A stretch of 62,277 nucleotides of DNA from Bdellovibrionota bacterium (lineage in GTDB: Bacteria; Bdellovibrionota_C; UBA2361; JBGSMV01). Shown here in pieces: positions 6,093 through 19,769 of this stretch. The stretch is from the NCBI GenBank assembly GCA_044356455.1, contig JBIKWF010000012.1, forward strand, positions 1 through 62,277, in the 5' to 3' direction. The position numbers and the translations under genes are program-made. The notes under the pieces are model-generated. The model was not told the DNA's origin and ran no database searches. It saw nothing but the letters and a program-made list of their open reading frames with translations. The stretch's first letter is position 1. Each line of letters starts with the position of its first letter.

Positions 6093-7484
6093 ATGTGGCT
6101 AAACAGAAGTAAGCAAAAACAGGCACTTAAGGCAAAGATCCTTAACTTGTCTCGGCAGGTGCTTATGGTTCAAGGTGCCCGGCAGGTTGGGAAGACTTCT
6201 TTAATTCGGGAAGTTCTCGGCGAGCTCAAGGACCACCCGGTGATTGAGGTTAATCTTCTCTACTCAACGTCGTTTACAGCGTCGGGTAAGACGCTTTTTG
6301 GCCGTGACTTTTTTGGAGCTGCTCCCCAGGGAGAAGAGCTGATTGCTAATATAGAGCGGCAGGTTGGGTCGCTCGCGAAACGCGACCGGCAGGTGCTGTT
6401 GTTCGTTGATGAGGTAGATAGGCATCCGCGAGTGATGGAGGCCGTACAGACGCTGGCACAGTTTTCTGACGGACTTAAATGCATTTTCACGGGGTCCGCC
6501 CTTGAGAATCTCAGCACTGAAAATGCAGCCACTGGAAGAAAGGCCTACTTTGACCTGTATCCACTTTCGTTTCTTGAGTATGTCAGTGCAAAAAACGATC
6601 GAGCCCTAGAAGGATTTTTGCAGGAAGCCGACGTGTCGATCGCGGGAGCAGATAGCTCGCTGCACCAGGCCACTGAGTTCATGCATGTGCAGGCGCTCGC
6701 CGCCTTTGAAGAGTACTTAAGATTGGGTGGTATGCCGCGCTTGGTTGCGTCCTATCTTTCGGGGGAGGGAAATGCCGAGACGTTGCGCTATGAGGTGCGG
6801 GACCTTGTACTTAGCATCGAAGAGAACGTAAAGCTGATACTCGGTGATAAGGCTAAACTTTACGAGTACGAGGATGTGCTTAGGCGCTTAGTAAAGTTGT
6901 CTTTAAATACTCTTAGGTTTACGCATCTGCAGGTTAGTCACGCGGGGAGATCTGATGCGAAGCGGTTAGTTTCCAAAACGGTGGCGGCGCGAGTCGCGCA
7001 CAAAGTCCGGCTTTGGGGTGACGAAGGAGATCTTTCTAAGTATCTTTTGTTTGATTGTGGTGTCGCCAACTACCTGCTCGCGGGTAGCGACCTTATGAAC
7101 GCTAAGATTCAGGAGGGCGATCGTGCAATTCTCTTGGAAACTGTAGTGGGGAACTCTCTGGTGAACCAGCTGGGAGTTCGCGAGGATTTATTGTATTGGA
7201 AGTCTGGCAATAAGGCAGAAATTGAGTTCGCCTTCCGCGCGCCCTTTTTTGGTGGGGTCGATGTAAAGTCCAGCAGCACTACCTCTCGCTCTTTGCAAAG
7301 CATGGCATTGTCCGAGCCTGATCTGGATCTGGCGATAGTGGTGACGAAGGGCAAGTTGGCATTTCATGCAGACTTTGAAGCGCGCCTGCCAAGCGCGCGG
7401 GAAGTGAGAAAGATTAAGTTGCTAAAATTGCCCTATTACCTCGTAGACCGGTGCTTGGATCTTGGCCAGCGGGCGCTAGGCTAG
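6093..7484 (+). CDS. Second, divergent AAA_14/DUF4143 ATPase
   Basis: GARQVGKT, LFVDEV, FTGS, TGRK, LYPLSFLEY, GGMPR, YLLFDCG, YWKS..AEIEF..VDVK. Confidence 0.85.
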   Translation: MWLNRSKQKQALKAKILNLSRQVLMVQGARQVGKTSLIREVLGELKDHPVIEVNLLYSTSFTASGKTLFGRDFFGAAPQGEELIANIERQVGSLAKRDRQVLLFVDEVDRHPRVMEAVQTLAQFSDGLKCIFTGSALENLSTENAATGRKAYFDLYPLSFLEYVSAKNDRALEGFLQEADVSIAGADSSLHQATEFMHVQALAAFEEYLRLGGMPRLVASYLSGEGNAETLRYEVRDLVLSIEENVKLILGDKAKLYEYEDVLRRLVKLSLNTLRFTHLQVSHAGRSDAKRLVSKTVAARVAHKVRLWGDEGDLSKYLLFDCGVANYLLAGSDLMNAKIQEGDRAILLETVVGNSLVNQLGVREDLLYWKSGNKAEIEFAFRAPFFGGVDVKSSSTTSRSLQSMALSEPDLDLAIVVTKGKLAFHADFEARLPSAREVRKIKLLKLPYYLVDRCLDLGQRALG

Positions 7485-7708
7485 CCTTTATATCTCACGG
7501 GATCCCTCCGGGTCCATGAGATTACCGTTGGAAATCGGCCATCCGGGCCAATTTCCAACATCGCCCCCTCTCCGTTCGCCACGACAGAGTGTCGAACTGC
7601 GAGGGGGCTCCAAATCGCTCCCGATGGTAGCGATTTGCTAACGCCATCCGGGCGTTAGTTAGCCGGCACTGCTCACAGCCCGTCGGGGCTGTGAGCAGTG
7701 CCGGCTAG
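7481..7708 (+). repeat. Family B multi-hairpin element, copy 1
   Basis: CTAG-CC...GG-CTAG. Consecutive hairpins TCTCACGG/CCATGAGA, GTTGGAAATCGGCC/GGCCAATTTCCAAC, CAAATCGC/GCGATTTG, CTAACGCC/GGCGTTAG, TAGCCGGCACTGCTCACAGCC/GGCTGTGAGCAGTGCCGGCTA. Confidence 0.9.
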
Positions 7709-7821
7709 GAGTGTGTCCCTTAGAAACATAAATCTTCAATTTGGACACAATCCGTAGGTAGGCTGTCCCGTTGCCACCACCGCATGTAGTGGTGAAAACT
7801 TTCCGCGGGACAGACTCCTAG
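7705..7821. mobile_element. Family C MITE-like element, copy 1
   Basis: CTAG-GAGTGTGTCCC...GGGACAGACTC-CTAG terminal inverted repeats. Shares its left CTAG with the B element. Confidence 0.8.
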
Positions 7822-7918
7822 GTTACACTCTTGCTGCAAACCTTCTTTCGTCAGGTGTGTTTACGAGTCAGATATTCTGAGCAGTAGGTCCCCTCGATCG
7901 AGCTCAAGATGGCCATAA

Positions 7919-8056
7919 CTAGGGAATCTTTGAAAAACTCACCTCTGTGTACCTCTGAGTCCTCTGTGGTGAAATTTTCATGAAGAAATTCACCGCAGTG
8001 GACACGGAGGTACACAGAGGTGTCTGAAGAATGAAGGTTTTTCAGGGGTTCCCTAG
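7919..8056. mobile_element. Family A MITE-like element (core variant A2)
   Basis: CTAG-GGAATCTTTGAAAAA...TTTTTCAGGGGTTCC-CTAG with internal long hairpin CTCTGTGGTGAAATTTTCATGAAGAAATTCACCGCAG. Confidence 0.9.
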
Positions 8057-8135
8057 CTGTAACAAGCGGTACTTCGTATGCCTGAGTGATAAGCCACAGT
8101 TGAATAAATGTGGCCATAACAGTAAGGAAATCCTT

Positions 8136-8705
8136 ATGGATGCAGAATTTATCTCTCAGCGACAGACCGGGCCCGGGCCGAGTTGGGCCATGTGGCATTC
8201 GGTTCGAGATCCGCAAAATAGCCGCGCTGCCGCAGCCATTGCGGAGCATACACGCGTCATGCAGGCTCTTTCCAACACAAATCCAACTGTCATGAGTGCA
8301 TGTAAGAATATTTTCGATGCTGAAGGACCGAGAGCTTTAGCTTTTCGTGCGCAGAGGCCTGCGGACGGTTTCGTGGTACTGGCGTATTCAAATAACGTCG
8401 CTATTCTCTATAATATTGATCGAGTCCCTGGGCAGGCGGGTGGGTTAATTAGCTCCGGGAGAGCGTATGCCTCTGGACCTGGAGTCCCTGAGATGCTGAA
8501 AGTCTTCGAAGACGCGGGACGCACCGTGATTCGAATTCAGGCTGAGCGTGCGATCTTGACGGTTGCTGTCGCAGGGAGCGTAGAGTTTGATGCCAAAGCA
8601 GCGCTTTGCGAGATGAATCTACTAAACGCACTCATCTTGATTGAGTCCGGAGAGGGGAGCTTAGACGATCTTAGTCGCCCTGGTTTTAATCCGCGAAGGA
8701 ATTAA
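8136..8705 (+). CDS. Hypothetical protein (189 aa)
   Basis: AAGGA SD before ATG 8136, and open frame. No motif recognised. The upstream ORF extension starts inside the repeat. Confidence 0.6.
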   Translation: MDAEFISQRQTGPGPSWAMWHSVRDPQNSRAAAAIAEHTRVMQALSNTNPTVMSACKNIFDAEGPRALAFRAQRPADGFVVLAYSNNVAILYNIDRVPGQAGGLISSGRAYASGPGVPEMLKVFEDAGRTVIRIQAERAILTVAVAGSVEFDAKAALCEMNLLNALILIESGEGSLDDLSRPGFNPRRN

Positions 8706-8823
8706 GTTGACACCAGAAAACCTTCCAAGATGCCCCCTTGGTCCACCTTTAAATTCTCGATTCTGAATTCTTGCCTGAAGTCTCGAAGAGTCTTGAAGAG
8801 CTCGATAGTGATACATCGAGTGA

Positions 8824-10893
8824 ATGAGCGATTCTCTTTTTGGTTTGCCGATTGTTTCACAAAGCGAAGTAGCTTCAGCTTCTGGGAATGTGGCTTCTTG
8901 GGATTCTCGAGCAGTCAATCTAATCACTAAGCGATTCCTCTCAGGGCATCACATCAGCCTTGAAGAGTGGCTTCGTCGTCTTTCCCATCGCTATGCGTCT
9001 TGTTACCAAGGTAGCGACGCTCGAAAGTGGCAAGAGATCTACTTTCATCTCCTTGCACACCGAATTTTCTTCCCTACAAGCGCGGCCCTCTACAATGCAA
9101 TCCACGGGCAGGGGAGTCTTTCGGGTTGCATGGTGCTCCCCGTTGGTGAAACTGTGGAGGAGATATGTGAGCGGACAGTTCCCCAAGTTCTTGCGGTCCT
9201 AAGGAACGGCATAGGAGTGGGGCTGGATTTGAGCGTTTTGTGCCCGCGTCTTGGGGAAGATCTCAACCCTAGTAGAGCTTTTCCGGGCCCTTGTGAGGTG
9301 TTCTCAAGTATCGCTCTTGCCGCCGACGGCTTGATTGCCTACTCCGGTTTAAAACGCTCGGCATTCATGGGTAGTCTTACTGCGGCACACCCAGACCTTT
9401 TTGAATTCATAAGCCTAAAGGCGACACGTAAACTTCAGAACGTAAATATTTCGATAGCTCTCGATGATGCGTTCGTGAGAGCCCTTAAGAGCGAAACACT
9501 GCTTCCTGTTTCCTTCGGTTATGATGGGCAGTCCCGGCATCTCACTCAAGGCGATCTTACTCGAATGGAGGAACGTGCAGTTCGCCGGTCGGTTGCCGCT
9601 CCGGATCTCGTGCTCAGAGGCACAGAGCTGCATTCACGAACTGCGAGACGCGTAGTCGGAGCGCTTCGAGGGTCGCAGCTCTACTTTGACCCTCGGGCCA
9701 TTCTAGATTTTGCCTCAGAACATGCGCATGCCTCTGGAGACCCTGGAATTCTCAACTTTGCATCAATCAATGCACATAATCCCACTCATCCGAACCATGC
9801 CCTTGATCCGAAGAGCCTTGGAGTAGGGGTCCTGCGCGCAACTACGCCATGTGGTGAACAACCTCTGTTGCCGTATGAAGTTTGTCATCTTGGAAGCATT
9901 AACCTAAATGCTTTCATCTCTGGCGCTCGATTTGACTATGCCTCCTTCAAGCGCTCCGTTCCGCTCATTGTTCGAATGATGGATGACATCGTCTCTTTGA
10001 GCGATCCTGGTATCAAGGAGGTCCGCCAAATTACCGAGGCGAATCGAAAGATAGGAATCGGGTTCATGGGGCTAGCAGATGTGCTTTCCCAGTTAGGCTT
10101 GCCTTACGATTCGGAGGAAGGGCGGTCTTTTGCAGCTCACATTGCAAAGACTCTTCAAGAAGTGGCGCGAGAAGCGTCAGCCGAGCTTGCCTCCGAGCGC
10201 GGTTCATTTATCTCGTGGGAGTCTTCCTCTTACTCTCGAAACGGAGTTGCACCAAGACGGCATGCCACCCTCACTACGATTGCGCCAACTGGCCATCTAT
10301 CCATGCTTGCAGGTTGCTCACCTGCGATTGAGCCATATTTCAAAATCGTTCATCTTAGGAATGCGGCAGGCAAGAATATAGAAGTAGCTACTCACCTTAA
10401 AACCAAGCTTCGTGCTTTAGGCTATTCATTGGATCGTTGGATACTCGATACCCGTCGAAATGATAGTTCGTATGGGTTTGATGGATCTCTTCAAGGCCTC
10501 ACAACAACCCCCGCTTCGCTTCCGCGTAAGCATTGGGATGCACTTGTGCAGTTAAAGCGCATCTTTCCTACGGCACATGAAATCACTCCTCACGACCATC
10601 TCCTTATGGCCCATGCGATTCAGCCTTTTATAGACAATGGCATAAGTAAAACAATAAACCTCCCACATAGTGCCACTGTCTCTGAAGTGCGCTCATTATT
10701 CCTCCGTTCAATCGAGCTTGGCCTTAAGGGCGTGACCGTATTTAGGGATGGATGCTTATCGACTCAGGCTCTTGAGAAGCTCCCCGAGTGCGCAGCCTGT
10801 GGGCGAATTGAGACTCTGACGAAAGGTGAGTGTTCTGGATTCTATTGTGACGTTGCACTTGGTGGATGCGGATACGACGCCTGTTCAATTTAG
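8824..10893 (+). CDS. nrdJ: Divergent class II (adenosylcobalamin-dependent) ribonucleotide reductase homologue
   Basis: SLSGCMVLPV, HPDLFEFI, NVNISI, GDPG, TPCGEQPLLPYEVCHLGSINL, RKIGIGFMG, TTIAPTG, ISKTIN, KGVTVFRDG (no class I Tyr dyad), C-terminal CxxC...C..CGYxxC. Confidence 0.88.
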   Translation: MSDSLFGLPIVSQSEVASASGNVASWDSRAVNLITKRFLSGHHISLEEWLRRLSHRYASCYQGSDARKWQEIYFHLLAHRIFFPTSAALYNAIHGQGSLSGCMVLPVGETVEEICERTVPQVLAVLRNGIGVGLDLSVLCPRLGEDLNPSRAFPGPCEVFSSIALAADGLIAYSGLKRSAFMGSLTAAHPDLFEFISLKATRKLQNVNISIALDDAFVRALKSETLLPVSFGYDGQSRHLTQGDLTRMEERAVRRSVAAPDLVLRGTELHSRTARRVVGALRGSQLYFDPRAILDFASEHAHASGDPGILNFASINAHNPTHPNHALDPKSLGVGVLRATTPCGEQPLLPYEVCHLGSINLNAFISGARFDYASFKRSVPLIVRMMDDIVSLSDPGIKEVRQITEANRKIGIGFMGLADVLSQLGLPYDSEEGRSFAAHIAKTLQEVAREASAELASERGSFISWESSSYSRNGVAPRRHATLTTIAPTGHLSMLAGCSPAIEPYFKIVHLRNAAGKNIEVATHLKTKLRALGYSLDRWILDTRRNDSSYGFDGSLQGLTTTPASLPRKHWDALVQLKRIFPTAHEITPHDHLLMAHAIQPFIDNGISKTINLPHSATVSEVRSLFLRSIELGLKGVTVFRDGCLSTQALEKLPECAACGRIETLTKGECSGFYCDVALGGCGYDACSI

Positions 10894-10901
10894 GAGGAAA
10901 C

Positions 10902-11735
10902 ATGCACCTTTCACACGATAACAATTCCAAGGAAAGTATGTCGGAGCTCTCTCCAGTTGCACCGGGTAATATCACGCCCAAGGCATGGACCCATCTGAGG
11001 GAGTGCCTCTCTCGAGATGGGTGGCTCTTGGGCACCTGCGCATTTGCCCCGCCTAGTAACGCCGAAAAACGAGCCTTTGGCGGCAAGACGTTTTATCGTT
11101 GCCAGAGTCTTCTCGCCCATATGAGTGGATCTGTCGACGACAACCTTGCGAACGCTGGCCTCATTAGGCTGTCCACCATTGAGGAAGCCATAATCCAAAT
11201 TTCTACCACAGAGGAGTCCGGTATGCAGGTTCTGAGGAACTGCAATGTAGGAGGTAAGCCACGATACAGCCTACCTGCAATCCCTGTAGGTACTAGTAAT
11301 GGCTATCGTCTCTATTATCGCCCCGAGGCTGAAGTAATTCACCATACCAAAGGCAAGAGCTGGAATCTTCCTGCGCCCGAACTCATGCTTGTTCCCCAAA
11401 ATGGTCAACATGTTGTCTCTATGTCTCTCACGCCTGAGCACGTACCACTTGAATGTTATGTTAATATTAACCTTCAGCCCACGCCCTACAGTAAAGGTAT
11501 GGAATGGCAGGACTTGGAGCTCGACCTAAAGCTTACGCGTGCCGACCATGGTTGGTATCTCGCTCTGCTTGATGTCGACGAATACGATCAAGCAAACCTG
11601 AGTGCCTCGCTTCGAGCATCTACTGAGGCAGAAATAGCTCGCATCATCGACGCAATTCAGGAAGGGAGGTTTCCGTTCCGCTGCGTGGGATCCTGGCATC
11701 AGATTCTGAAAGACTTTCCCTCGCGAAGTCTATAA
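10902..11735 (+). CDS. DUF402 (FomD/Ntdp-like) nucleotide hydrolase domain protein with N-terminal extension
   Basis: AGGAGG SD. C-terminal YVNIN..P..WQDLELDL..LLDVDEY is the DUF402 signature. Confidence 0.75.
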   Translation: MHLSHDNNSKESMSELSPVAPGNITPKAWTHLRECLSRDGWLLGTCAFAPPSNAEKRAFGGKTFYRCQSLLAHMSGSVDDNLANAGLIRLSTIEEAIIQISTTEESGMQVLRNCNVGGKPRYSLPAIPVGTSNGYRLYYRPEAEVIHHTKGKSWNLPAPELMLVPQNGQHVVSMSLTPEHVPLECYVNINLQPTPYSKGMEWQDLELDLKLTRADHGWYLALLDVDEYDQANLSASLRASTEAEIARIIDAIQEGRFPFRCVGSWHQILKDFPSRSL

Positions 11736-11803
11736 AGTCGAAGTTTTTTAACCTGTAATGGTGCTCTAATTCGATTGAGTAAGATGTGACGGCGGGAGAG
11801 CCC

Positions 11804-12319
11804 TCAGGAGAGTCGCACGCTCTTTCCTTTTACACGTGAGCACAGTTTGCAAAGATGCTTGGGGAAGAGTCGCTTCACCTGTGCCTCAGCTTTGAGGAGT
11901 CCTCGGCCTGCATCTTCTCCTTTGACTGTGACGCGGAGTATGCGCTGTTGACAACAGCGACAGAACCAAACAAAGGCCTCCCTCTCTCCGGGAGAGCGCG
12001 TCCGTTCTACGACTATCCCGAGTGATCGGTCTGGCCTTTCGGGGTAATGAGGTAGCCCAGCTGGAATGAGGAATGACTCTCCCTCCCGGATTGGAATCCT
12101 CTTTATTCTCCCCTGCTTCCAGACATGCAATACCATTTTACCCTTCACCTGAAAAAGGAACTCATCTGAAGGATTGATATGAAAGTGGCTCTTCTTGTTT
12201 GGGCCACTCACTACCAGAACCAGGAGCGAGTGTTCGCGATAAATGATCCCACACTTCTTCTTTGAGAATATTTTTGAATTCTCTCGCAGCCATGTTTTCA
12301 GAGATCTAGGACCTTGCAT
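11804..12319 (-). CDS. 3-hydroxyanthranilate 3,4-dioxygenase-like cupin (divergent)
   Basis: GPN..FH.NP.DEF, PH.P.RP, VVER.R, WFCxxC...CxxC rubredoxin-like site. GGAG SD 7 nt before ATG 12319, overlapping the upstream HAD gene. Confidence 0.85.
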   Translation of the reverse strand: MQGPRSLKTWLRENSKIFSKKKCGIIYREHSLLVLVVSGPNKKSHFHINPSDEFLFQVKGKMVLHVWKQGRIKRIPIREGESFLIPAGLPHYPERPDRSLGIVVERTRSPGEREAFVWFCRCCQQRILRVTVKGEDAGRGLLKAEAQVKRLFPKHLCKLCSRVKGKSVRLS

Positions 12320-13016
12320 TTGCATGCTCCACAAGTTTTATTGGAATCTCAAAAATGGACTCAATTCTATTCTGGGGGGGGATGTCATATTTTCTCCCGG
12401 GGTCAATCAGAAGACAGCGCATGTTAGCATTTTGCGCACCGCAGTAATCATCAGTGTAGGAGTCCCCGATATACAACCCTTCGTGAGGCTGTACCTGAAG
12501 ACGTCTTAGGGATTCGAGGAAAATTGAACTTTCAGGCTTTCGCCTGCCATATTCGACAGATAGGAGAATATCGGAGAACGACTCATGTATCTTCATGGCT
12601 CTTAGATGCCCTAGTACCAAGGGCGCATAGTGAGTATTTGAAATCAGTCCAAGCCGAAATTGTTTTCCCAGCAGAGCGAGCAGTTCAGCTGTCCCGGTTT
12701 TGTAGGTCACGCCCTTATTCCACTCATCGAGAAAAAGAATCACAATTTCGTTCACAAGCTCTTCATGCACCTCAGGTTGATAGGGTGCAAGAATCAGGCG
12801 CACTACCTCACCCATGTGAAACTCTCTGAGAGTAATGACACTCTGTGTGGTGAGCAGGGAGTAAGCTTGTTCCCACTTCGCGATATACGTCTCATAGTCA
12901 TCGGTAAAACCAGCCCGACATAATGCCCGGTAGGAGCCATCATATCGCATAGAGCCAGTTCGATCTTTGTAATCTACGAGAGTTCCGAAGAAATCGAATA
13001 GAAGTGCCTTTGTCAT
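12306..13016 (-). CDS. HAD-superfamily hydrolase (subfamily IA)
   Basis: LLFDFFGTL, LISN, KP, YIGDSYTDD..GA. Confidence 0.9.
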   Translation of the reverse strand: MTKALLFDFFGTLVDYKDRTGSMRYDGSYRALCRAGFTDDYETYIAKWEQAYSLLTTQSVITLREFHMGEVVRLILAPYQPEVHEELVNEIVILFLDEWNKGVTYKTGTAELLALLGKQFRLGLISNTHYAPLVLGHLRAMKIHESFSDILLSVEYGRRKPESSIFLESLRRLQVQPHEGLYIGDSYTDDYCGAQNANMRCLLIDPGRKYDIPPQNRIESIFEIPIKLVEHANARS

Positions 13017-13028
13017 ACTAATTACCCC

Positions 13029-13177
13029 TTAGGGAAACTCTGAAATACCTAGAAATCAATATTCCTCTGTCCTGTTTTTCCTCCGTGTCCTCTGCGTGCC
13101 CCGCGTTATGCAGTATTTGTTAAGTAACGCAGGGGACGCTGAGTACGCAGAGGGGTAGTTTTTCAGAGGTTCGTTAG
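13029..13177. mobile_element. Family A element (variant A3) inserted in the 3' end of the large fusion gene
   Basis: TTAG-GGAAACTCTGAAATA...TTTTTCAGAGGTTCG-TTAG. Non-palindromic TTAG is duplicated. Confidence 0.9.
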
Positions 13178-16100
13178 TCACTAAATCGGAGGTCGATCTT
13201 ATATCTGAAAACCTATTCTCCCGCTGCCATTGCCCTAGGACGCTCTTCCATTTCCCGCAGCGCACAGGGCATTTTCTAACCAATGCGTGATATTTCCCCT
13301 GTTGGTATTCGAGTGCGGCGAATCCTATTTCATTTGTTTCGACTTCAAGACAATTCTGCATGTCAATACCATGGAGCTTCACTCCTGCCTGTTTGAGAAT
13401 ATCGAGGTGCCGCTTCATCACTTCTGGGGCGGTATCATCTGCAAGCACGATTCGGACCCTGGATTCTTTTAAGATTCGCGATATTGACCGAAGCCGAAAC
13501 AGCGAGGCGCCCTCCGTGAAGGTTCCGTGGCCTGCCAGTATATCGGGCTGATGTTTGGAGAGATCCACCAGAATACAGTCTCTGGTTTCATCGAGGACAT
13601 CCTCTAAAGCGCGAAAATAGTCTTTGAAATCAGTCTGGTTTCCCCCGATGGCAGCCATGATGCTGCTGCCAAGCTCGTTTCTCACTCGTATGAGGTAATT
13701 ACGATCCACCCGATGCTGGAATTGGAGAATGACGTCTTTGGGATCGAGGGAGTATGCCGTAAGGATCTCTCGGAGCGTTTCTATCTCATGGCGCCTCTCG
13801 ACGATCACTACCTTCTTTACCCAATCAGGAGTTGCAGAGAGCATAGCAGCAATGCCTGCCCGCTCATAAACGGGAATAGGGAGCGTGGATATGGTCTCCC
13901 CATTCGCAATAACTGGCGCTCTCGTTCGCGTAGCTTGCAGGTACTTTTTTTGATCGTCGTAGACCGCATGAAGACCGATTGCATTAAAGCCGCACCTGAG
14001 CACTGTCGTTAGGTCAATTAGGTTGTGCACCCGGCAGGCTTTCACTATGCCTAAGGTGCCGAGATCGCCGTCTATGCCTGGCAATAGCTTGTGGTGGTTC
14101 AATGGCTGGATTCGCTTGAAGAATCCCTCCAGCCGTGCGGACTTTTGACTTGTTCCCCAGGTGTTAAAAGCGGTCACATACTCGGAAGCTGGCATATAAG
14201 TGAGAGACGATTCCCAGCCGGATGCGAGTTCCTCGCAGGGCTCAGAGCGAAGCCATGAAACTAGATTCTCATAGTTAACCGCTGCAGCGGCGGTATGAAC
14301 AACAGCTCCTGTACGCTGTGCCAGTTGGCTCGCGATAAGGGTAAGCGTGCGAAAGGTCGTAACATTATTGTCGAACAAGAGAACATTTTTCTCTTTGAGA
14401 GAACCAGCTCTCAACGGTGTCTCGAATGGCTTGGGCAGGAAATAGTCGAGCCAGCTTTCTGGCTCGCTGGCTTGCAGCGAAATAATCGCCTCTTTGTCTC
14501 TATGAATACTTAAGGGAAAAGGGACAACCTCCGGTGGTTTTGCGTGAGAGTATAGCTGCGAAAGTACACTACGAAGTGCGTATCCGAGTTCAACGCTTCC
14601 AAAGAGAGGCGTTGCCACATAGGCGTACCGTACCCCACTTGTGTGCATTGCAGCCGCAACATGCAACACCGATCGGGCAATTTGAAAATTGTCGTCGAGC
14701 TCACGCATGGCTTGATGCGGAAAGGGCTCTTTCAAAACGATTCGGACTACAGCCTCCTCTAGCTCTTTTGGTCTATGAAGCGTTTGAGGAGTAGGTTGCC
14801 CCAATAGTAATTGATAGTAGAAATCGGTAGCGGACTCGCACCAGGCACGCAGGTCCCCACGCAGCGCCTCAGCACTCTCATTCTTGTAATGGACAGCTTG
14901 ACGCGACACGCTATTGAGAGCGCTAAAGAGCGCATGCTTGTAGTGGTCAACAACCATGAGCAAAATGAGTCTGGCCGCCTTCGACAGCTTCGACCAAGAC
15001 GCGGGTAAATCGAGTTTTGAAAGAAGTTCGAAGGCTTCTGTGCTAATTGAGAATAAGAAAGCGAATCGTTCAAGGACTGATTCAGAGGAAAGGGAAAGAT
15101 AAGGAGGGAGGCCATAGTAGAAGAGCTTCCCTCTCAGATACGTCCGCCGAGGGGTTCGCGTGATCATCTCCTCAAGATAGCCACAGAAACGGTCATTCAG
15201 AGAAAAACGGTCTGTGAGCTCTCTAAGAGCGTTCTTGAACGCTTGCGTGGGAAGCGAGCAGATCCCAATTGGATCAGAGACGGCATCAAACATCTCATGA
15301 ACTTCACGCATGCCTTTGCACCATTCGTTTTGAGGAAGTGCGACACCGCTATGGCCAGTTTTAAGCATCGTCATAAGACGCTTGCGGTCCAGCTCACCGA
15401 GTAGGAATTTATACCACCCCTTTTGCCCGTCTTCTCGACGAGGAGCAAAAACGGTTCCCCCATGTAACTTAACTTGATTGAGAAGTGCGTGGTTTGCGGG
15501 GTCATCATCCGCAGCGAAAACAATCATCGCTCCTTTCGCGAGCATCAGTTGTGCAACCTGTCGCTTATGTTCCCCAAAACAGTGCCAGGCCTCCCGACAC
15601 CCGTCACTCGAATAGCCAATTCCTGACCCAAGCACTTCGTACCTTACCTCCGTAAGTCCGCACTTTGCGAGAGCGCTCTGAACAACTCCCGCGATGAAGG
15701 GTTCAGCACCCGCACTTAGAAAAAGTACCCTTAGACCTGAACCATAGAGTCGAGAGAGATATCGCAGATACCGAACTGCTCCCTTATAGGGAGGAATCTC
15801 ATTGGCGATGATTCTCCCCGCCGAGTACAGCACCTGCGGTCCTATAGGCTCATTCTCCCCTAGGACGCTTATGTGATTCGCGTGGGCCTTTGCCATCTCT
15901 GGGGACACTGTGGCTGGTAGGAGTGCAAGACTTGCCTTCCTGAACTCCTGGCTGCTGAGGGTCTTAGTGACATACGTCGCGCGGTGGAGCGATCTATACT
16001 CCGTTGCCCTATGTTCGGGAATGAGAAGGTCTCTCTTCAGACAGGCCCAGTGCCATGAAGTTCTTGAAAGGAATACTCTGTCCACATCGAAAATGGCCCA

Positions 16101-16196
16101 CGTTTCACCGCTTCTCACCCCAGCGAGAAACAATTTCAATCGCTCCTCGAAGGAGTTTGGCATAGAGCTGGTTTCTGTGATTGTGGCGCTGCTCAT
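13056..16196 (-). CDS. Fusion protein: HAD phosphatase-like + type I PRTase-like + TrpF-like TIM barrel
   Basis: HAD motifs IFDVD, FLSAG, K, AADDD. PRTase-like ATPLFGSVELG and VLLFDNNVTTFRTL. TrpF-like VKACRVHN...GFNAIGLH, ILQF, ILVD, GIDMQNCLE. ATGA overlap with the upstream gene at 16193-16196. Confidence 0.65.
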   Translation of the reverse strand: MSSATITETSSMPNSFEERLKLFLAGVRSGETWAIFDVDRVFLSRTSWHWACLKRDLLIPEHRATEYRSLHRATYVTKTLSSQEFRKASLALLPATVSPEMAKAHANHISVLGENEPIGPQVLYSAGRIIANEIPPYKGAVRYLRYLSRLYGSGLRVLFLSAGAEPFIAGVVQSALAKCGLTEVRYEVLGSGIGYSSDGCREAWHCFGEHKRQVAQLMLAKGAMIVFAADDDPANHALLNQVKLHGGTVFAPRREDGQKGWYKFLLGELDRKRLMTMLKTGHSGVALPQNEWCKGMREVHEMFDAVSDPIGICSLPTQAFKNALRELTDRFSLNDRFCGYLEEMITRTPRRTYLRGKLFYYGLPPYLSLSSESVLERFAFLFSISTEAFELLSKLDLPASWSKLSKAARLILLMVVDHYKHALFSALNSVSRQAVHYKNESAEALRGDLRAWCESATDFYYQLLLGQPTPQTLHRPKELEEAVVRIVLKEPFPHQAMRELDDNFQIARSVLHVAAAMHTSGVRYAYVATPLFGSVELGYALRSVLSQLYSHAKPPEVVPFPLSIHRDKEAIISLQASEPESWLDYFLPKPFETPLRAGSLKEKNVLLFDNNVTTFRTLTLIASQLAQRTGAVVHTAAAAVNYENLVSWLRSEPCEELASGWESSLTYMPASEYVTAFNTWGTSQKSARLEGFFKRIQPLNHHKLLPGIDGDLGTLGIVKACRVHNLIDLTTVLRCGFNAIGLHAVYDDQKKYLQATRTRAPVIANGETISTLPIPVYERAGIAAMLSATPDWVKKVVIVERRHEIETLREILTAYSLDPKDVILQFQHRVDRNYLIRVRNELGSSIMAAIGGNQTDFKDYFRALEDVLDETRDCILVDLSKHQPDILAGHGTFTEGASLFRLRSISRILKESRVRIVLADDTAPEVMKRHLDILKQAGVKLHGIDMQNCLEVETNEIGFAALEYQQGKYHALVRKCPVRCGKWKSVLGQWQRENRFSDIRSTSDLVTNEPLKNYPSAYSASPALLNKYCITRGTQRTRRKNRTEEY

Positions 16197-17377
16197 GACC
16201 GCGGACACCTCGAATCGCCTGCATAAAGAATTCGCTCGCTTGCAAGACTATAAATGTTGAACCCTTTGCGCACCGCAGGCTCGACTCGAAGCACTCGGAT
16301 GACGGGTGTAATAATTATCTGGCACCGCTGCCCTCTAGAGAGAAAGATATCGCGGAGATGAAAGAGCCGATGCTGACCGACAGGGCTGGAGGGGCCTAGT
16401 ATAAGTGCATGCGTATGTCCGCGTGCTTCGTAACGTTTACCTCCACTGAACGCCTCCCACTCCGGCTCATTCCTTTCATATTTTGAGCCAAAGGCGATAA
16501 GCTGTTGGCCTTCGCTGAGCGGAAAATGTTCCTCCGCACCGGCCTTCTGAGCGTCTTTGAGTGTTAGCATCGCGCTCTCGGGGATCTTACGCAGAACGCG
16601 TCCAACAACTATTGACGAGTGAGGCGACTCTTTTTGGTGCTCAAGGCTGATTTGTATTGAAAACGCCTCTAGTCCGAGGGTGGCCGCGGCTTGAGAGAGG
16701 ATATCAAGTACACTTGCTCTCTCTTCATGCGCTTCAATTTCGAGGAGAATATTCCTCTGCTCCCCTTGTTTCTGAGGTGAGAGCCAAGCGGTATGCGAAT
16801 AGACACTTCGCTGGTCAATCAGTTCCCGATGGCCCTTCTTGGAAAGTGGTACGCGTTCGCTAAATCTACCTCCCGCGGGAATGAATCCACTTTGACTGCG
16901 CGAAACGCCTTTTCCCCCTTCTGCATCTATCAGCGAGTACTCTAGGACTTCTCCGCCTGGATGACCGTCCCGAGGCTTTGAGCCTGATGCTCCGAAGCGC
17001 AAGTAGCTAAGAGAAGTATCGATACACCGCAGTGCCTTAAGAATGGCGAGCACATCAGAATCGTCAAAGAGTATTGCCTTGGCGAATATCAAACTAGCAA
17101 TTCCTTGCATATCTACGATACAGGAGTCGTGTCCACCGAAATCCAAGTGGGGGCTTAGTACATGCTCTGGCTTCAGGCTTTGCAAACGGCGCACTCCCTC
17201 TGTGGCACTCCACGGCTGGCAGGGCACATCGGCGTAACGTCTCTCGAGCGCGTGAAAAAGTTTACTCCCTGACTCGGCGAGATACGTGCATGGTGCGATT
17301 TCAGTGGTCACCCAGGGATCCTGGAGTTTAAAGCCAGGAATTGTTAGCAGGGGACAGTCAAGGTCGCTTAGAAACAT
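16193..17377 (-). CDS. Hypothetical metalloprotein, acetolactate decarboxylase/PPC-like fold suspected
   Basis: C-terminal GHTHALI...FHLRD (HxH..H) preceded by AFSIQI..VVGRV..LIAFG, and an N-terminal GEV segment, in the same order as in AlsD/BudA. Confidence 0.45.
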   Translation of the reverse strand: MFLSDLDCPLLTIPGFKLQDPWVTTEIAPCTYLAESGSKLFHALERRYADVPCQPWSATEGVRRLQSLKPEHVLSPHLDFGGHDSCIVDMQGIASLIFAKAILFDDSDVLAILKALRCIDTSLSYLRFGASGSKPRDGHPGGEVLEYSLIDAEGGKGVSRSQSGFIPAGGRFSERVPLSKKGHRELIDQRSVYSHTAWLSPQKQGEQRNILLEIEAHEERASVLDILSQAAATLGLEAFSIQISLEHQKESPHSSIVVGRVLRKIPESAMLTLKDAQKAGAEEHFPLSEGQQLIAFGSKYERNEPEWEAFSGGKRYEARGHTHALILGPSSPVGQHRLFHLRDIFLSRGQRCQIIITPVIRVLRVEPAVRKGFNIYSLASERILYAGDSRCPRS

Positions 17378-17467
17378 TTGGGTATTTAAATCAGTTGTAT
17401 AATAGTTGTGGGCTCGGTGATTCAGAGGCTGATTAGAAATATCTGGCGGGCGTCCTTCATTGATTGT

Positions 17468-18103
17468 TCACTTGGGACGCCGCTCTATGCCGAGCGTGCG
17501 TAAAGCCTGCAACATGAATTCGAGACGTTCCTCTATCGAACGCACAGGTACGGGCGTAACCTGATAGCCAAGATCCGAGTACACTTCTCCAAGACGCTGT
17601 GTCATTGCTGCTGTTCTACGTGCTTCGTCGGAAGTCCGAATTCCATCTTCGATGAAAGGTAGGGGTTCAAAGAGGAAGACGTGTCGATATCGTGCATTAA
17701 GCTGTGTGCTACGAAGCGCGGATGGATCTAGCTCCGCGAGCTCGTAATACACGATGCTGTCGGGGAGTGCTCTGTCGAAGATGAAGCTCATGCCTTTAGG
17801 GAGTCTGTTCTCGAGAGCGAGCTTCTTTTCCCATATCAGTTCAGAAACGAAATCACCTTTGCTGAAAAGTTCGTCGGCGGTGCACTTTTTGACTGTAAGT
17901 TCCTTTCGGATGACTAAGCGTGCAATTTCGGGCACTACATTGTACCCCAACTCCTTAAGCAGATTGGCTGTGGTGCTCTTTCCCGAACATGGGCCTCCGG
18001 TAAATACAACCCACGGAGGCTGTTGCAAGGCATCTAGGGCAGAGCCTTCCGCAGATCGAGGGGGGAGGTCTCTTCTCTCATTTATTACTTTGGTAGAATT
18101 CAT
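17468..18103 (-). CDS. AAA_28 (NadR/Ttd14-like) P-loop kinase/ATPase
   Basis: VFTGGPCSGKST, VPEIAR, FDRALPD, VFLFEPLP..DGIR. GGAG SD 8 nt before ATG 18103. Confidence 0.85.
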   Translation of the reverse strand: MNSTKVINERRDLPPRSAEGSALDALQQPPWVVFTGGPCSGKSTTANLLKELGYNVVPEIARLVIRKELTVKKCTADELFSKGDFVSELIWEKKLALENRLPKGMSFIFDRALPDSIVYYELAELDPSALRSTQLNARYRHVFLFEPLPFIEDGIRTSDEARRTAAMTQRLGEVYSDLGYQVTPVPVRSIEERLEFMLQALRTLGIERRPK

Positions 18104-18201
18104 CACCATCACTCCGTACAGTTGTGACCGGACATTAGCTGCATCGTCATCCCCAGCCCTTGTATTTCGCTCACGAGCGTGAATCCCTTGAAATATGAGG
18201 G

Positions 18202-18367
18202 CTAACCGTCATGTCTCACGGGATCCCTACGGGTCCGTGAGACTGCGCGTAAAATCCGCCGTCCTGGCGGGTTTTACGCATCGAGCACCTGCGAGCACCG
18301 CAAACATAGCGTCGCCCTCCGGTCGCGATTTGCTAACGCCGTCCGGGCTGTGAGCAGTCGCGGCTAG
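18202..18367 (+). repeat. Family B element, copy 2 (internally deleted)
   Basis: CTAA-CCGTCATGTCTCACGGGATCC...GGGCTGTGAGCAGTCGCGG-CTAG, same hairpin series as the copy at 7481. Confidence 0.85.
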
Positions 18368-18479
18368 GAGCGTGCACCTCAAAAACATGAATGTTCATGT
18401 GGCACGCAACACGCAGATGTCTGTCCCGTTATCAACGCAAAAGGTAGTGGTAGAACCGTTCTGCGGCACAGACTCCTAG
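18364..18479. mobile_element. Family C element, copy 2
   Basis: CTAG-GAGCGTGCACC...GGCACAGACTC-CTAG, colinear with 7705-7821. Confidence 0.75.
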
Positions 18480-18630
18480 GTCAGTTGATGTGTAGCATCA
18501 GAACTTTGCGGAGGCGCGCGTACGCTTCAGTACAGAATTCAGAGCGGCTCACAGAATGAGCGTCTGTAATCAATTAGCGTAAGAGTAAAGATTGGGGTGT
18601 GTTAGGTAGGTGAAGGGGGCCGAGCGTTAG

Positions 18631-19362: not shown

Positions 19363-19510
19363 GTGCCTGGCCTGATTGCTTGCTCCAGCGAGCCTAGCCC
19401 GCCCTCGCCAGTCGGGGAATCCCTGATGAATTACGAGACATTGTCGGAGTCGCATCGAGTCTCAATTCCCTTTTACTCACAAAGTTCCCTTTCCTAAGCC
19501 TTTCAGCTAC

Positions 19511-19648
19511 CTAGGGAACCTCTGAAAAACCTCGATATTTTATTTTTTTCTCTCCGTGATCTTTGTGTCCTCTGTGGTTTTTCAACAATTTAAATCAACC
19601 ACAGAGGGCACAGAGTTCACAGAGCAGACTTTTTCAGAGCTTCCCTAG
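19511..19648. mobile_element. Family A element (variant A1)
   Basis: CTAG-GGAACCTCTGAAAAA...TTTTTCAGAGCTTCC-CTAG. Confidence 0.92.
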
Positions 19649-19769
19649 AATAACCTTTCGGTAACATTCAATTTGGCCCAATTCGGTCCCCGGCAAGAAG
19701 TCACGAGAGAGCTCGAAGGCGTCATAACTCCTCTGTCTTTCTTGGTTCTATTCTTTTTTGGGGGTTTCT

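Follow-up and report, generated by a model that had tools for sequence, protein, structure and literature searches.

What does a protein make that joins a phosphatase, a predicted phosphoribosyltransferase (PRTase) and a TrpF-like isomerase in a single chain? The question is raised by a minus-strand gene at 13056..16196 of contig JBIKWF010000012.1 from a Bdellovibrionota bacterium (assembly GCA_044356455.1), whose 62,277 nucleotides we refer to as the window. Counted from ATG 16196, this fusion gene encodes 1046 aa with a HAD domain, a lid, a putative type I PRTase domain and a TrpF-like barrel, and directly upstream of it, also on the minus strand (16193..17377), lies a partner gene of 394 aa whose product matches by structure the zinc-binding fold of acetolactate decarboxylase (ALDC) and C11orf54. 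We found that the cassette containing these genes is real, conserved and undescribed, and that it resembles clusters of the nucleoside-antibiotic type. Its product is probably a nucleoside-like small molecule and not tryptophan, and we see about an even chance that fusion and partner form the two-gene core of a mobile cassette in which phosphoribosyl pyrophosphate (PRPP) reacts with a common amine and the adduct is rearranged to such a molecule.

The fusion lies in an unbroken minus-strand open reading frame (ORF; 16208-13056) of 1050 aa if counted from a GTG codon; we favor ATG 16196 as its start because this codon and the stop codon upstream of it share the sequence ATGA. Residue numbers in this text are those of the database form P0002 (start 16163, 1035 aa), to which 11 is added for numbering from ATG 16196. 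A word-index search with the fusion returned six proteins including itself, the other five at 28–35% identity and 96–97% query coverage, and an exhaustive search (E ≤ 0.001, 50% clustering) returned 96 representatives including itself. Since 38 of these 96, self included, match in a single stretch from residue 121 or earlier to residue 983 or later, and since all domains share one frame at 27 of the 41 loci that we compared (16 genome loci, 24 metagenome loci and the window, falling into 29 clusters at 90% identity), the fusion is not an accident of assembly. Independent lake-water assemblies covered all 30 bins of the region, with no ORF-internal indel among those listed. Neither Pfam nor NCBIfam gave any match to the fusion, and PADLOC, PHROGs and the PDB sequences gave none to fusion or partner; the partner likewise lacked a match in Pfam or any other family collection. 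From the ESM Atlas the fusion drew only HAD-type leads below 0.8 and the partner no usable match, and IMG/VR contained no relatives.

We modeled the fusion with AlphaFold2 from an alignment, A4, whose 64 rows comprise 50 proteins from the database and 14 from the loci and exclude P0018, P0055, short fragments and the sister family described below, and obtained a mean predicted local distance difference test score (pLDDT) of 89.5 and a predicted template modeling score (pTM) of 0.86. In fold searches with this predicted model, residues 20–257 matched the SerB-type HAD 3m1y with Z 15.0 and a root-mean-square deviation (rmsd) of 3.6 over 189 aligned positions, which places a SerB/MtnX-like HAD phosphatase domain with a helical cap at residues 18–260 (15384..16112). 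Residues 703–979 matched Thermotoga maritima TrpF, 1nsj (Z 19.2, rmsd 2.4, 199 aligned), and TrpF structures occupied ranks 1–11 of the search; the corresponding TrpF-like barrel (residues 703–980, 13224..14057) scored above neither the PF00697 nor the NCBIfam TrpF cut-offs. A gene of its own, directly after the one for HAD and PRTase, encodes the barrel at 8 loci, which fall into 3 clusters, and this split confirms the domain border.

Between HAD and barrel, we relied on a sister family with the order lid-PRTase-TrpF (P0087, P0089, P0091, P0092, P0098 and P0099). Profiles of the fusion and of this family aligned over 627 columns through homologous lid, PRTase and barrel (E 1e-39), at 18–21% identity. 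Region 480–680 of the fusion matched it with an hhalign probability of 98.2 (E 5e-14), and the sister profile in turn matched solved type I PRTases, namely 1vdm (E 8e-6), hypoxanthine-guanine PRTases and PurF; of the first 6 sister proteins, 4 matched PF00156 below its cut-off, at E <1e-3. The putative type I PRTase domain of the fusion (residues 484–680, 14124..14714), which bears the hood motif E488-x-D490, is thereby assigned transitively, by sequence profiles and through the sister family only. Preceding it is a lid of beta-hairpin and helical structure (residues 285–480, 14724..15311), which is conserved and also occurs in the sister family (hhalign probability 90.6). The original prediction, made from the letters alone, had described three motif sets in one chain of about 1045 aa and likened their logic to TrpD-TrpF with a type I PRTase, and both statements agree with the unbroken 1046-aa frame, the fold matches of HAD and barrel and the sister-family link to PRTases. 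What it had called a helical linker between HAD and PRTase does lie between these domains, but is a conserved domain with invariant residues and not a mere linker.

Residue conservation was counted over those A4 rows that have a residue at the position in question. HAD motifs I–IV are kept (D26 and D28 in 56/57 each, S/T150 in 60/60, K200 in 59/59, D219 and D220 in 60/60 each), and the domain thus has both the fold and the DxD, S/T, K and DD motifs of capped SerB/MtnX-type phosphatases. In the lid, R344 (61/61) and D/E406 (63/63) are invariant, and we regard this domain as the candidate acceptor-binding part. E488 and D490 of the PRTase hood are present in 64/64, and the PRPP loop within the PRTase domain (D-N/H-N-V-T-T-F, 14352-14384) has D598 in 63/63, N600 in 64/64 and, at position 599, Asn in 57 or His in 7 rows (64/64 together); the DN variant of the loop that had been read from the window copy, VLLFDNNVTT, is present. 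The strict PF00156 form of the loop, with four hydrophobic residues, two acids and xxTG, is absent from the fusion.

In the barrel, K708, C710, R711 and D867 are each found in 61/61 rows, and through the sister profile the Lys, Cys and Asp positions map to Lys5, Cys7 and Asp126 of 1nsj, of which Cys7 on strand 1 and Asp126 on strand 6 are, we assume, catalytic. The KxC start and GxD ending noted earlier are both there, as KACR and GIDMQ. The loops after strands 7 and 8 of TrpF (GG and SSG) presumably hold phosphate, and in the fusion the barrel phosphate loops are replaced, with ADD for AGG, MQN for VSSG and SKHQP for the GGTG loop (D909 in 52/59, D910 in 57/59, Q936 and N937 in 59/60 each). 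The sister family differs in that it keeps the TrpF phosphate loops (invariant GG, GGT and DxES in 7/7), has Gly in its PRPP loop and lacks the N-terminal HAD, and all 7 of its members that were scanned exceeded the cut-off for phosphoribosylanthranilate isomerase (PRAI; EC 5.3.1.24). Three sister members end in an apparent circularly permuted HAD, with a DxD motif at the C-terminus. Loss of the phosphate site, like the near-obligate zinc partner, had gone unmentioned in the original prediction.

The partner model (pLDDT 88.9) aligned with human C11orf54/PTD012 (1xcr) at Z 23.5 and rmsd 3.4 over 283 positions (Foldseek E 2e-10) and with acetolactate decarboxylases at Z 14.6–15.4 (4bt2, 15.4), the next unrelated structure scoring Z 3.6, which points to the two-domain ALDC/PTD012 fold. 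Conserved residues include H321 and H323 (28/28 each), H336 (27/28), H340 (28/29) and E143 (30/30), and from its sequence the protein carries an HxH...H zinc triad with H336 or H340 as third ligand. Fold and three-histidine zinc motif are thus shared with C11orf54 and acetolactate decarboxylase, from which the partner differs in its 10–13% identity, its lack of a Pfam match and its place in a bacterial cassette. C11orf54 is described in PMC12337341 as a zinc decarboxylase with three His ligands and non-phosphorylated beta-keto-L-gulonate as substrate. We found the partner at 34 of 41 loci and at 34 of the 38 that bear a barrel, the barrel loci without it being L026 and L031, where the contig is cut, and L004 and L007. 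A longer version of the partner, fused to another domain, did not turn up, though this is weak evidence.

Taken as a pathway, these parts would act in the following order. With the lid closing over it, the type I PRTase would set ribose-5-phosphate on an N-H nitrogen of the acceptor, most likely a base or nucleotide amine. The fused HAD would strip that 5-phosphate, and the TrpF barrel would then open the ribose of a phosphate-free substrate and carry out an Amadori rearrangement to a 1-amino-1-deoxyribulose. The partner might hold the resulting alpha-hydroxyketone on zinc and act on it by zinc-enediolate cleavage, decarboxylation or cyclization, after which the second phosphatase, with an exporter where present, would release the product; kinases, extra IMP dehydrogenase (IMPDH) and nucleotide hydrolases would tailor the product or protect the producer. 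A need for two phosphatases is understandable where the acceptor is a nucleotide in its own right, and the kinases, ribonucleotide reductase (RNR) and nucleotide hydrolases found at some loci also fit that case. More tentatively, and with clearly less than an even chance, we envisage that the cassette represents a new class of nucleoside-like natural-product pathway. The amine of a nucleobase or nucleotide would first receive the phosphoribosyl group and then lose its phosphate; a TrpF that needs no phosphate would perform the Amadori rearrangement, and the zinc ALDC-fold enzyme would cut or cyclize the result, such that the ribose carbons join a new base (e.g., an imidazo-fused purine or pyrimidine). 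A kinase and dedicated class II RNR would give a 2′-deoxy form, and extra IMPDH would mark purine synthesis as the target.

Several observations weigh against this rearranging pathway. Of the modeling and structure search that had been suggested as a check, the HAD and the TIM barrel came back as expected, but no PRTase was among the listed rows of three whole-model fold searches. The PRPP loop lacks its second acid, and its Gly position is F604 in 52/64 rows and Gly in none. The window copy itself departs from the family at the pyrophosphate loop, with PLFGS for PYGG, and has His at K554, where 58/64 family rows have Lys. A partial protein, P0055, retains GGG at strand 7 beside the family KHQP loop, and if the ADD motif bound a phosphate-bridging metal, as it could, the order of steps given above would be void. 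At L004 and L007 the fusion is intact and the partner was found nowhere in these small metagenome-assembled genomes (MAGs). Exporters and IMPDH occur in a minority of clusters (major facilitator superfamily [MFS] transporters in 3+3, IMPDH in 5 of 29), and a clostridial IMPDH beside GMP synthase (genome G064) is that genome's only full-length copy, so that this site may be the housekeeping one and merely the point of insertion. In favor of the pathway, the IMPDH after the MFS gene at L016 is a second full copy, besides the housekeeping one.

The missing phosphate loops also suit a different scheme, with the logic of tubercidin synthesis or of UMP synthase. Here a base would be built or decarboxylated by barrel and zinc enzyme, joined to ribose through a ring nitrogen by the PRTase and relieved of phosphate by the HADs, giving a nucleoside analogue with intact ribose and no Amadori step. 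Neighboring kinase, RNR, DUF402, HD and IMPDH genes need a normal ribose-5′-phosphate product, and the order PRTase, decarboxylase, phosphatase is that of tubercidin synthesis in PMC6112128, where the cluster comprises TubE (PRTase), TubF (decarboxylase), TubG (Nudix), TubH (kinase), TubI (MFS) and TubD (GMP reductase). Compared with that cluster, the Streptomyces copies of the cassette are alike in having a PRTase, a decarboxylase-type enzyme, a phosphatase, a carbohydrate kinase, an MFS transporter and an IMPDH-family gene, and unlike in having a TrpF barrel and a decarboxylase-type enzyme of the ALDC fold instead of UbiD. The genes that mark 7-deazapurine synthesis in tubercidin and toyocamycin clusters (GTP cyclohydrolase I, CPH4 synthase and CDG synthase) are absent from the plasmid cassette described below and from the window cassette. 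Since the barrel is nearest to TrpF and keeps exactly its Cys/Asp pair, and since minimal cassettes contain no base-building genes, we consider an intact-ribose product unlikely.

The rearranging pathway that we favor has chemical parallels elsewhere. TrpF-type and HisA-type Amadori steps serve outside tryptophan and histidine synthesis, according to PMC4161248 and PMC13055916. In the latter, the adechlorin, pentostatin and coformycin clusters are given a HisG-like enzyme, a PriA/HisA-like AdeK and a SAICAR synthetase homologue; phosphoribosyl transfer is likewise followed by an Amadori isomerase, there acting on a nucleotide and building a nucleoside antibiotic, and the cassette differs from these clusters by its type I PRTase, TrpF-type barrel and zinc ALDC-fold enzyme. 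HisG-like, HisA/PriA-like or SAICAR-synthetase genes were found neither in the plasmid cassette nor among the neighbors scanned. The former describes a chlamydial route through RibA and TrpF to dihydroneopterin monophosphate, in which TrpF rearranges a non-anthranilate ribosylamine that then cyclizes; unlike in the cassette, GTP is there the source of the ribosylamine and TrpF an ordinary PRAI that binds phosphate. With TrpD, TrpF (1nsj, 1lbm) and TrpC, the cassette shares PRPP transfer, a Cys/Asp TrpF barrel and a possibly decarboxylating third enzyme, and it departs from them in its type I PRTase, extra lid and HAD, replaced phosphate loops, ALDC-fold third enzyme, lack of trp gene context and hosts that mostly lack TrpA. 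Because defining genes or motifs are missing in each comparison, the cassette is a member of none of these systems. In searches of the full-text literature outside subscription papers, we found no description of fusion or cassette by title or by the start of the abstract, in line with the earlier remark that the architecture was not a recognized one.

Which acceptor is used bears directly on the tryptophan question. The window's genome (93% complete) yielded no TrpF, TrpA, TrpC or TrpD, and has one chorismate-binding gene, a quinolinate PRTase and a kynurenine operon with its own 3-hydroxyanthranilate dioxygenase (3-HAO; contig C207). A non-orthologous replacement of TrpD, TrpF and TrpC, whose activities PRTase, isomerase and decarboxylase would mirror, or a pathway with anthranilate, 3-hydroxyanthranilate or pyridine carboxylates as substrates might be read from these gaps and from the kynurenine pathway with its 3-HAO paralog in the cassette. 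Yet TrpA is missing as well, both in this host and in 10 of 14 hosts (6 of 14 lack PurE), 8 of 13 other hosts have no chorismate-binding enzyme (these hosts being MAGs with no completeness given, several of them related), and a 3-HAO lies at 2 of 41 loci. We rejected tryptophan replacement on these grounds, and the scheme as a whole is the least probable that we weighed. The lack of a chorismate-binding enzyme argues against anthranilate-type acceptors, and pyridines (quinolinate, nicotinate and picolinate among them) lack the N-H that an Amadori step requires; the anthranilate, 3-hydroxyanthranilate and pyridine substrates put forward in the original prediction accordingly found little support. 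As many of the hosts do without tryptophan, chorismate or PurE enzymes, the acceptor is probably something that streamlined auxotrophs keep, for instance a base, nucleotide, amino acid or ammonia.

The fusion family is rare and patchily scattered, and the cassette is presumably mobile. Genome loci that carry the fusion belong to Bdellovibrionales, Micavibrio, Clostridia, Lachnobacterium, Bacteroides and Streptomyces; within the order of the window's host it occurs in 2 of 61 genomes, self included, and in the genus of the Streptomyces copy the partner occurs in 1 of 401 genomes, namely that copy's own. In a quick unrooted tree of 55 rows the window protein grouped with that of L001 (support 99), and the tree named no donor. 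An unannotated 19-kb record labeled ‘Bacteriophage sp.’ encodes a full-length homologue (MT835751.1:2622-5405), and this DNA may come from a host or a mobile element. Such a scattered distribution, the small clostridial genomes whose cores have two to three genes, and the kinase and RNR of the window, which could yield a deoxy-triphosphate analogue, would suit a defense against phage inside the cell, through production of a nucleotide analogue or depletion of a nucleotide pool, along the lines of prokaryotic viperins. PADLOC 2.0 (2023 library) returned 0 families for the fusion (P0002) and partner (P0109) at E 0.01, no defence genes were noticed among the neighbors scanned (chosen ORFs), and the exporters and nonribosomal peptide synthetase (NRPS)-type genes of other loci point to a secreted product, and we therefore hold an anti-phage role to be quite improbable.

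Neighboring genes were named from scans of chosen ORFs (69 + 26 + 37). Of the 29 clusters, 24 have a second phosphatase (Cof HAD, HAD-IA or HD) and 14 a kinase (dNK/TMK-like, AAA_28, PfkB or APH); less frequent are AMP-binding or CYTH genes (9), FMN reductase (6), NTP_transf_5 (5) and a PurH cyclohydrolase domain (4). PfkB (4/29 clusters) and APH/fructosamine-kinase-like (3/29) kinases deserve a word, as kinases of these kinds serve deglycation. They would fit a catabolic salvage of ribulosamine glycation products, where the kinase phosphorylates the Amadori compound and barrel and PRTase run in reverse to free the amine and regenerate PRPP. This we judge very improbable, given that the fused and the second phosphatase would undo the work of the kinase, that the barrel has no phosphate site and that the transporter is of an efflux family.

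The cassette on Streptomyces plasmid NZ_CP108736.1 has five genes (OG520_RS00905-RS00925; Cof HAD, partner, fusion, PfkB carbohydrate kinase and Cmx-type MFS) and sits among plasmid genes; RefSeq labels its fusion ‘HAD family hydrolase’ and its partner ‘hypothetical protein’. Because the core proteins have no Pfam or NCBIfam model and bear such labels, annotation-based cluster mining would probably overlook the cassette. Its TrpF seems to function with no phosphate handle, its partner extends the ALDC/C11orf54 fold by a new branch in bacteria, and its five-gene form, found in sequenced Streptomyces isolates, is directly expressible; an exported nucleoside-like compound could also matter ecologically, as the cassette occurs in gut Clostridia and Bacteroides genomes.

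Other loci showed variants. A divergent arm at L016 (3243-8358) holds a second MFS gene, an unassigned 250-aa gene, a Cof-like/DUF6024 gene and, farther out, an NCS1 nucleobase transporter. A shorter form (L023:8859-12503 and L025:8773-12544) has lid and PRTase alone and no zinc partner, in the company of a MoaA-like radical SAM gene, a HAD, a stand-alone PRAI-like gene and an APH kinase. The split-barrel form (L024, L033, L034 and L036-L040) is flanked by a PurH cyclohydrolase-domain gene, an NRPS of adenylation, carrier and condensation domains (A-PCP-C), an HD hydrolase and MFS, while gut loci (L013, L015, L020, L029 and L030) have one or two dNK/TMK-like kinases, CYTH, NTP_transf_5 and AMP-binding/PCP genes, to which L015 adds an amino-acid:carrier-protein ligase-like gene. 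Two single records depart in domain content, P0018 with a C-terminal PfkB kinase (1290 aa) and P0055 with a LOG domain between PRTase and barrel. We rejected P0054, P0063, P0069 and P0085 as extra fusions, since they look like deletion or chimera forms of an L015-type locus.

In the window, the partner is preceded on the minus strand by an AAA_28 P-loop nucleoside/nucleotide kinase-like gene (17468..18112; PF13521, E 2.6e-31), also present at L001, and the fusion is followed on the same strand by the second phosphatase, a YjjG/CTE7-like HAD-IA according to family scans (12306..13016), and by a 3-HAO-like cupin (11804..12334; PF06052 above its cut-off, below the NCBIfam cut-offs). On the plus strand lie a class II (B12) RNR (8824..10893; TIGR02504, 418 bits against a cut-off of 400) and a DUF402 (FomD-like) gene (10866..11735; PF04167), a candidate nucleoside-diphosphate hydrolase, which we take to be the function of that family. 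RNR, DUF402 and 3-HAO stand beside the fusion in the window and at L001 only. The cupin is a paralog of the kynurenine-operon copy, which lies beside kynureninase on contig C207, and another RNR lies on contig C204, so that cassette 3-HAO and RNR are extra copies. From kinase, RNR, DUF402 and HAD we infer a route to a 2′-deoxy version of the product, seen at these two loci only. Ahead of the RNR is a plus-strand ORF of 224 aa (8031-8705) with no Pfam, NCBIfam, PADLOC or PHROG match; it begins inside a repeat and has no counterpart at the other loci. Rfam gave no match, promoter and terminator scans were at chance level, and no RNA holder was among those listed.

Repeats mark both the end of the fusion gene and the edges of the cassette. 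The C-terminal tail of the fusion (13056..13205, minus strand) is non-conserved and predicted to be disordered, with pLDDT <50 for residues 987–1035; its last 40-odd codons are a genome-wide dispersed repeat read in frame, homologues stop about 50 residues sooner, and a genomic blast over about 13010-13170 gave 22–59 matches per 20-base bin. The cassette lies between two direct repeats (7480-7823 and 18200-18481; about 75% alike) that belong to a composite palindromic family with dozens to hundreds of copies across the genome. We rejected as an excision a contig joint that skips 7611-18321, since one side of it spans 28 bases and the sequences that it connects are both copies of a dispersed repeat. 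Other families of repeats were noted at 7920-8040 and 19510-19650.

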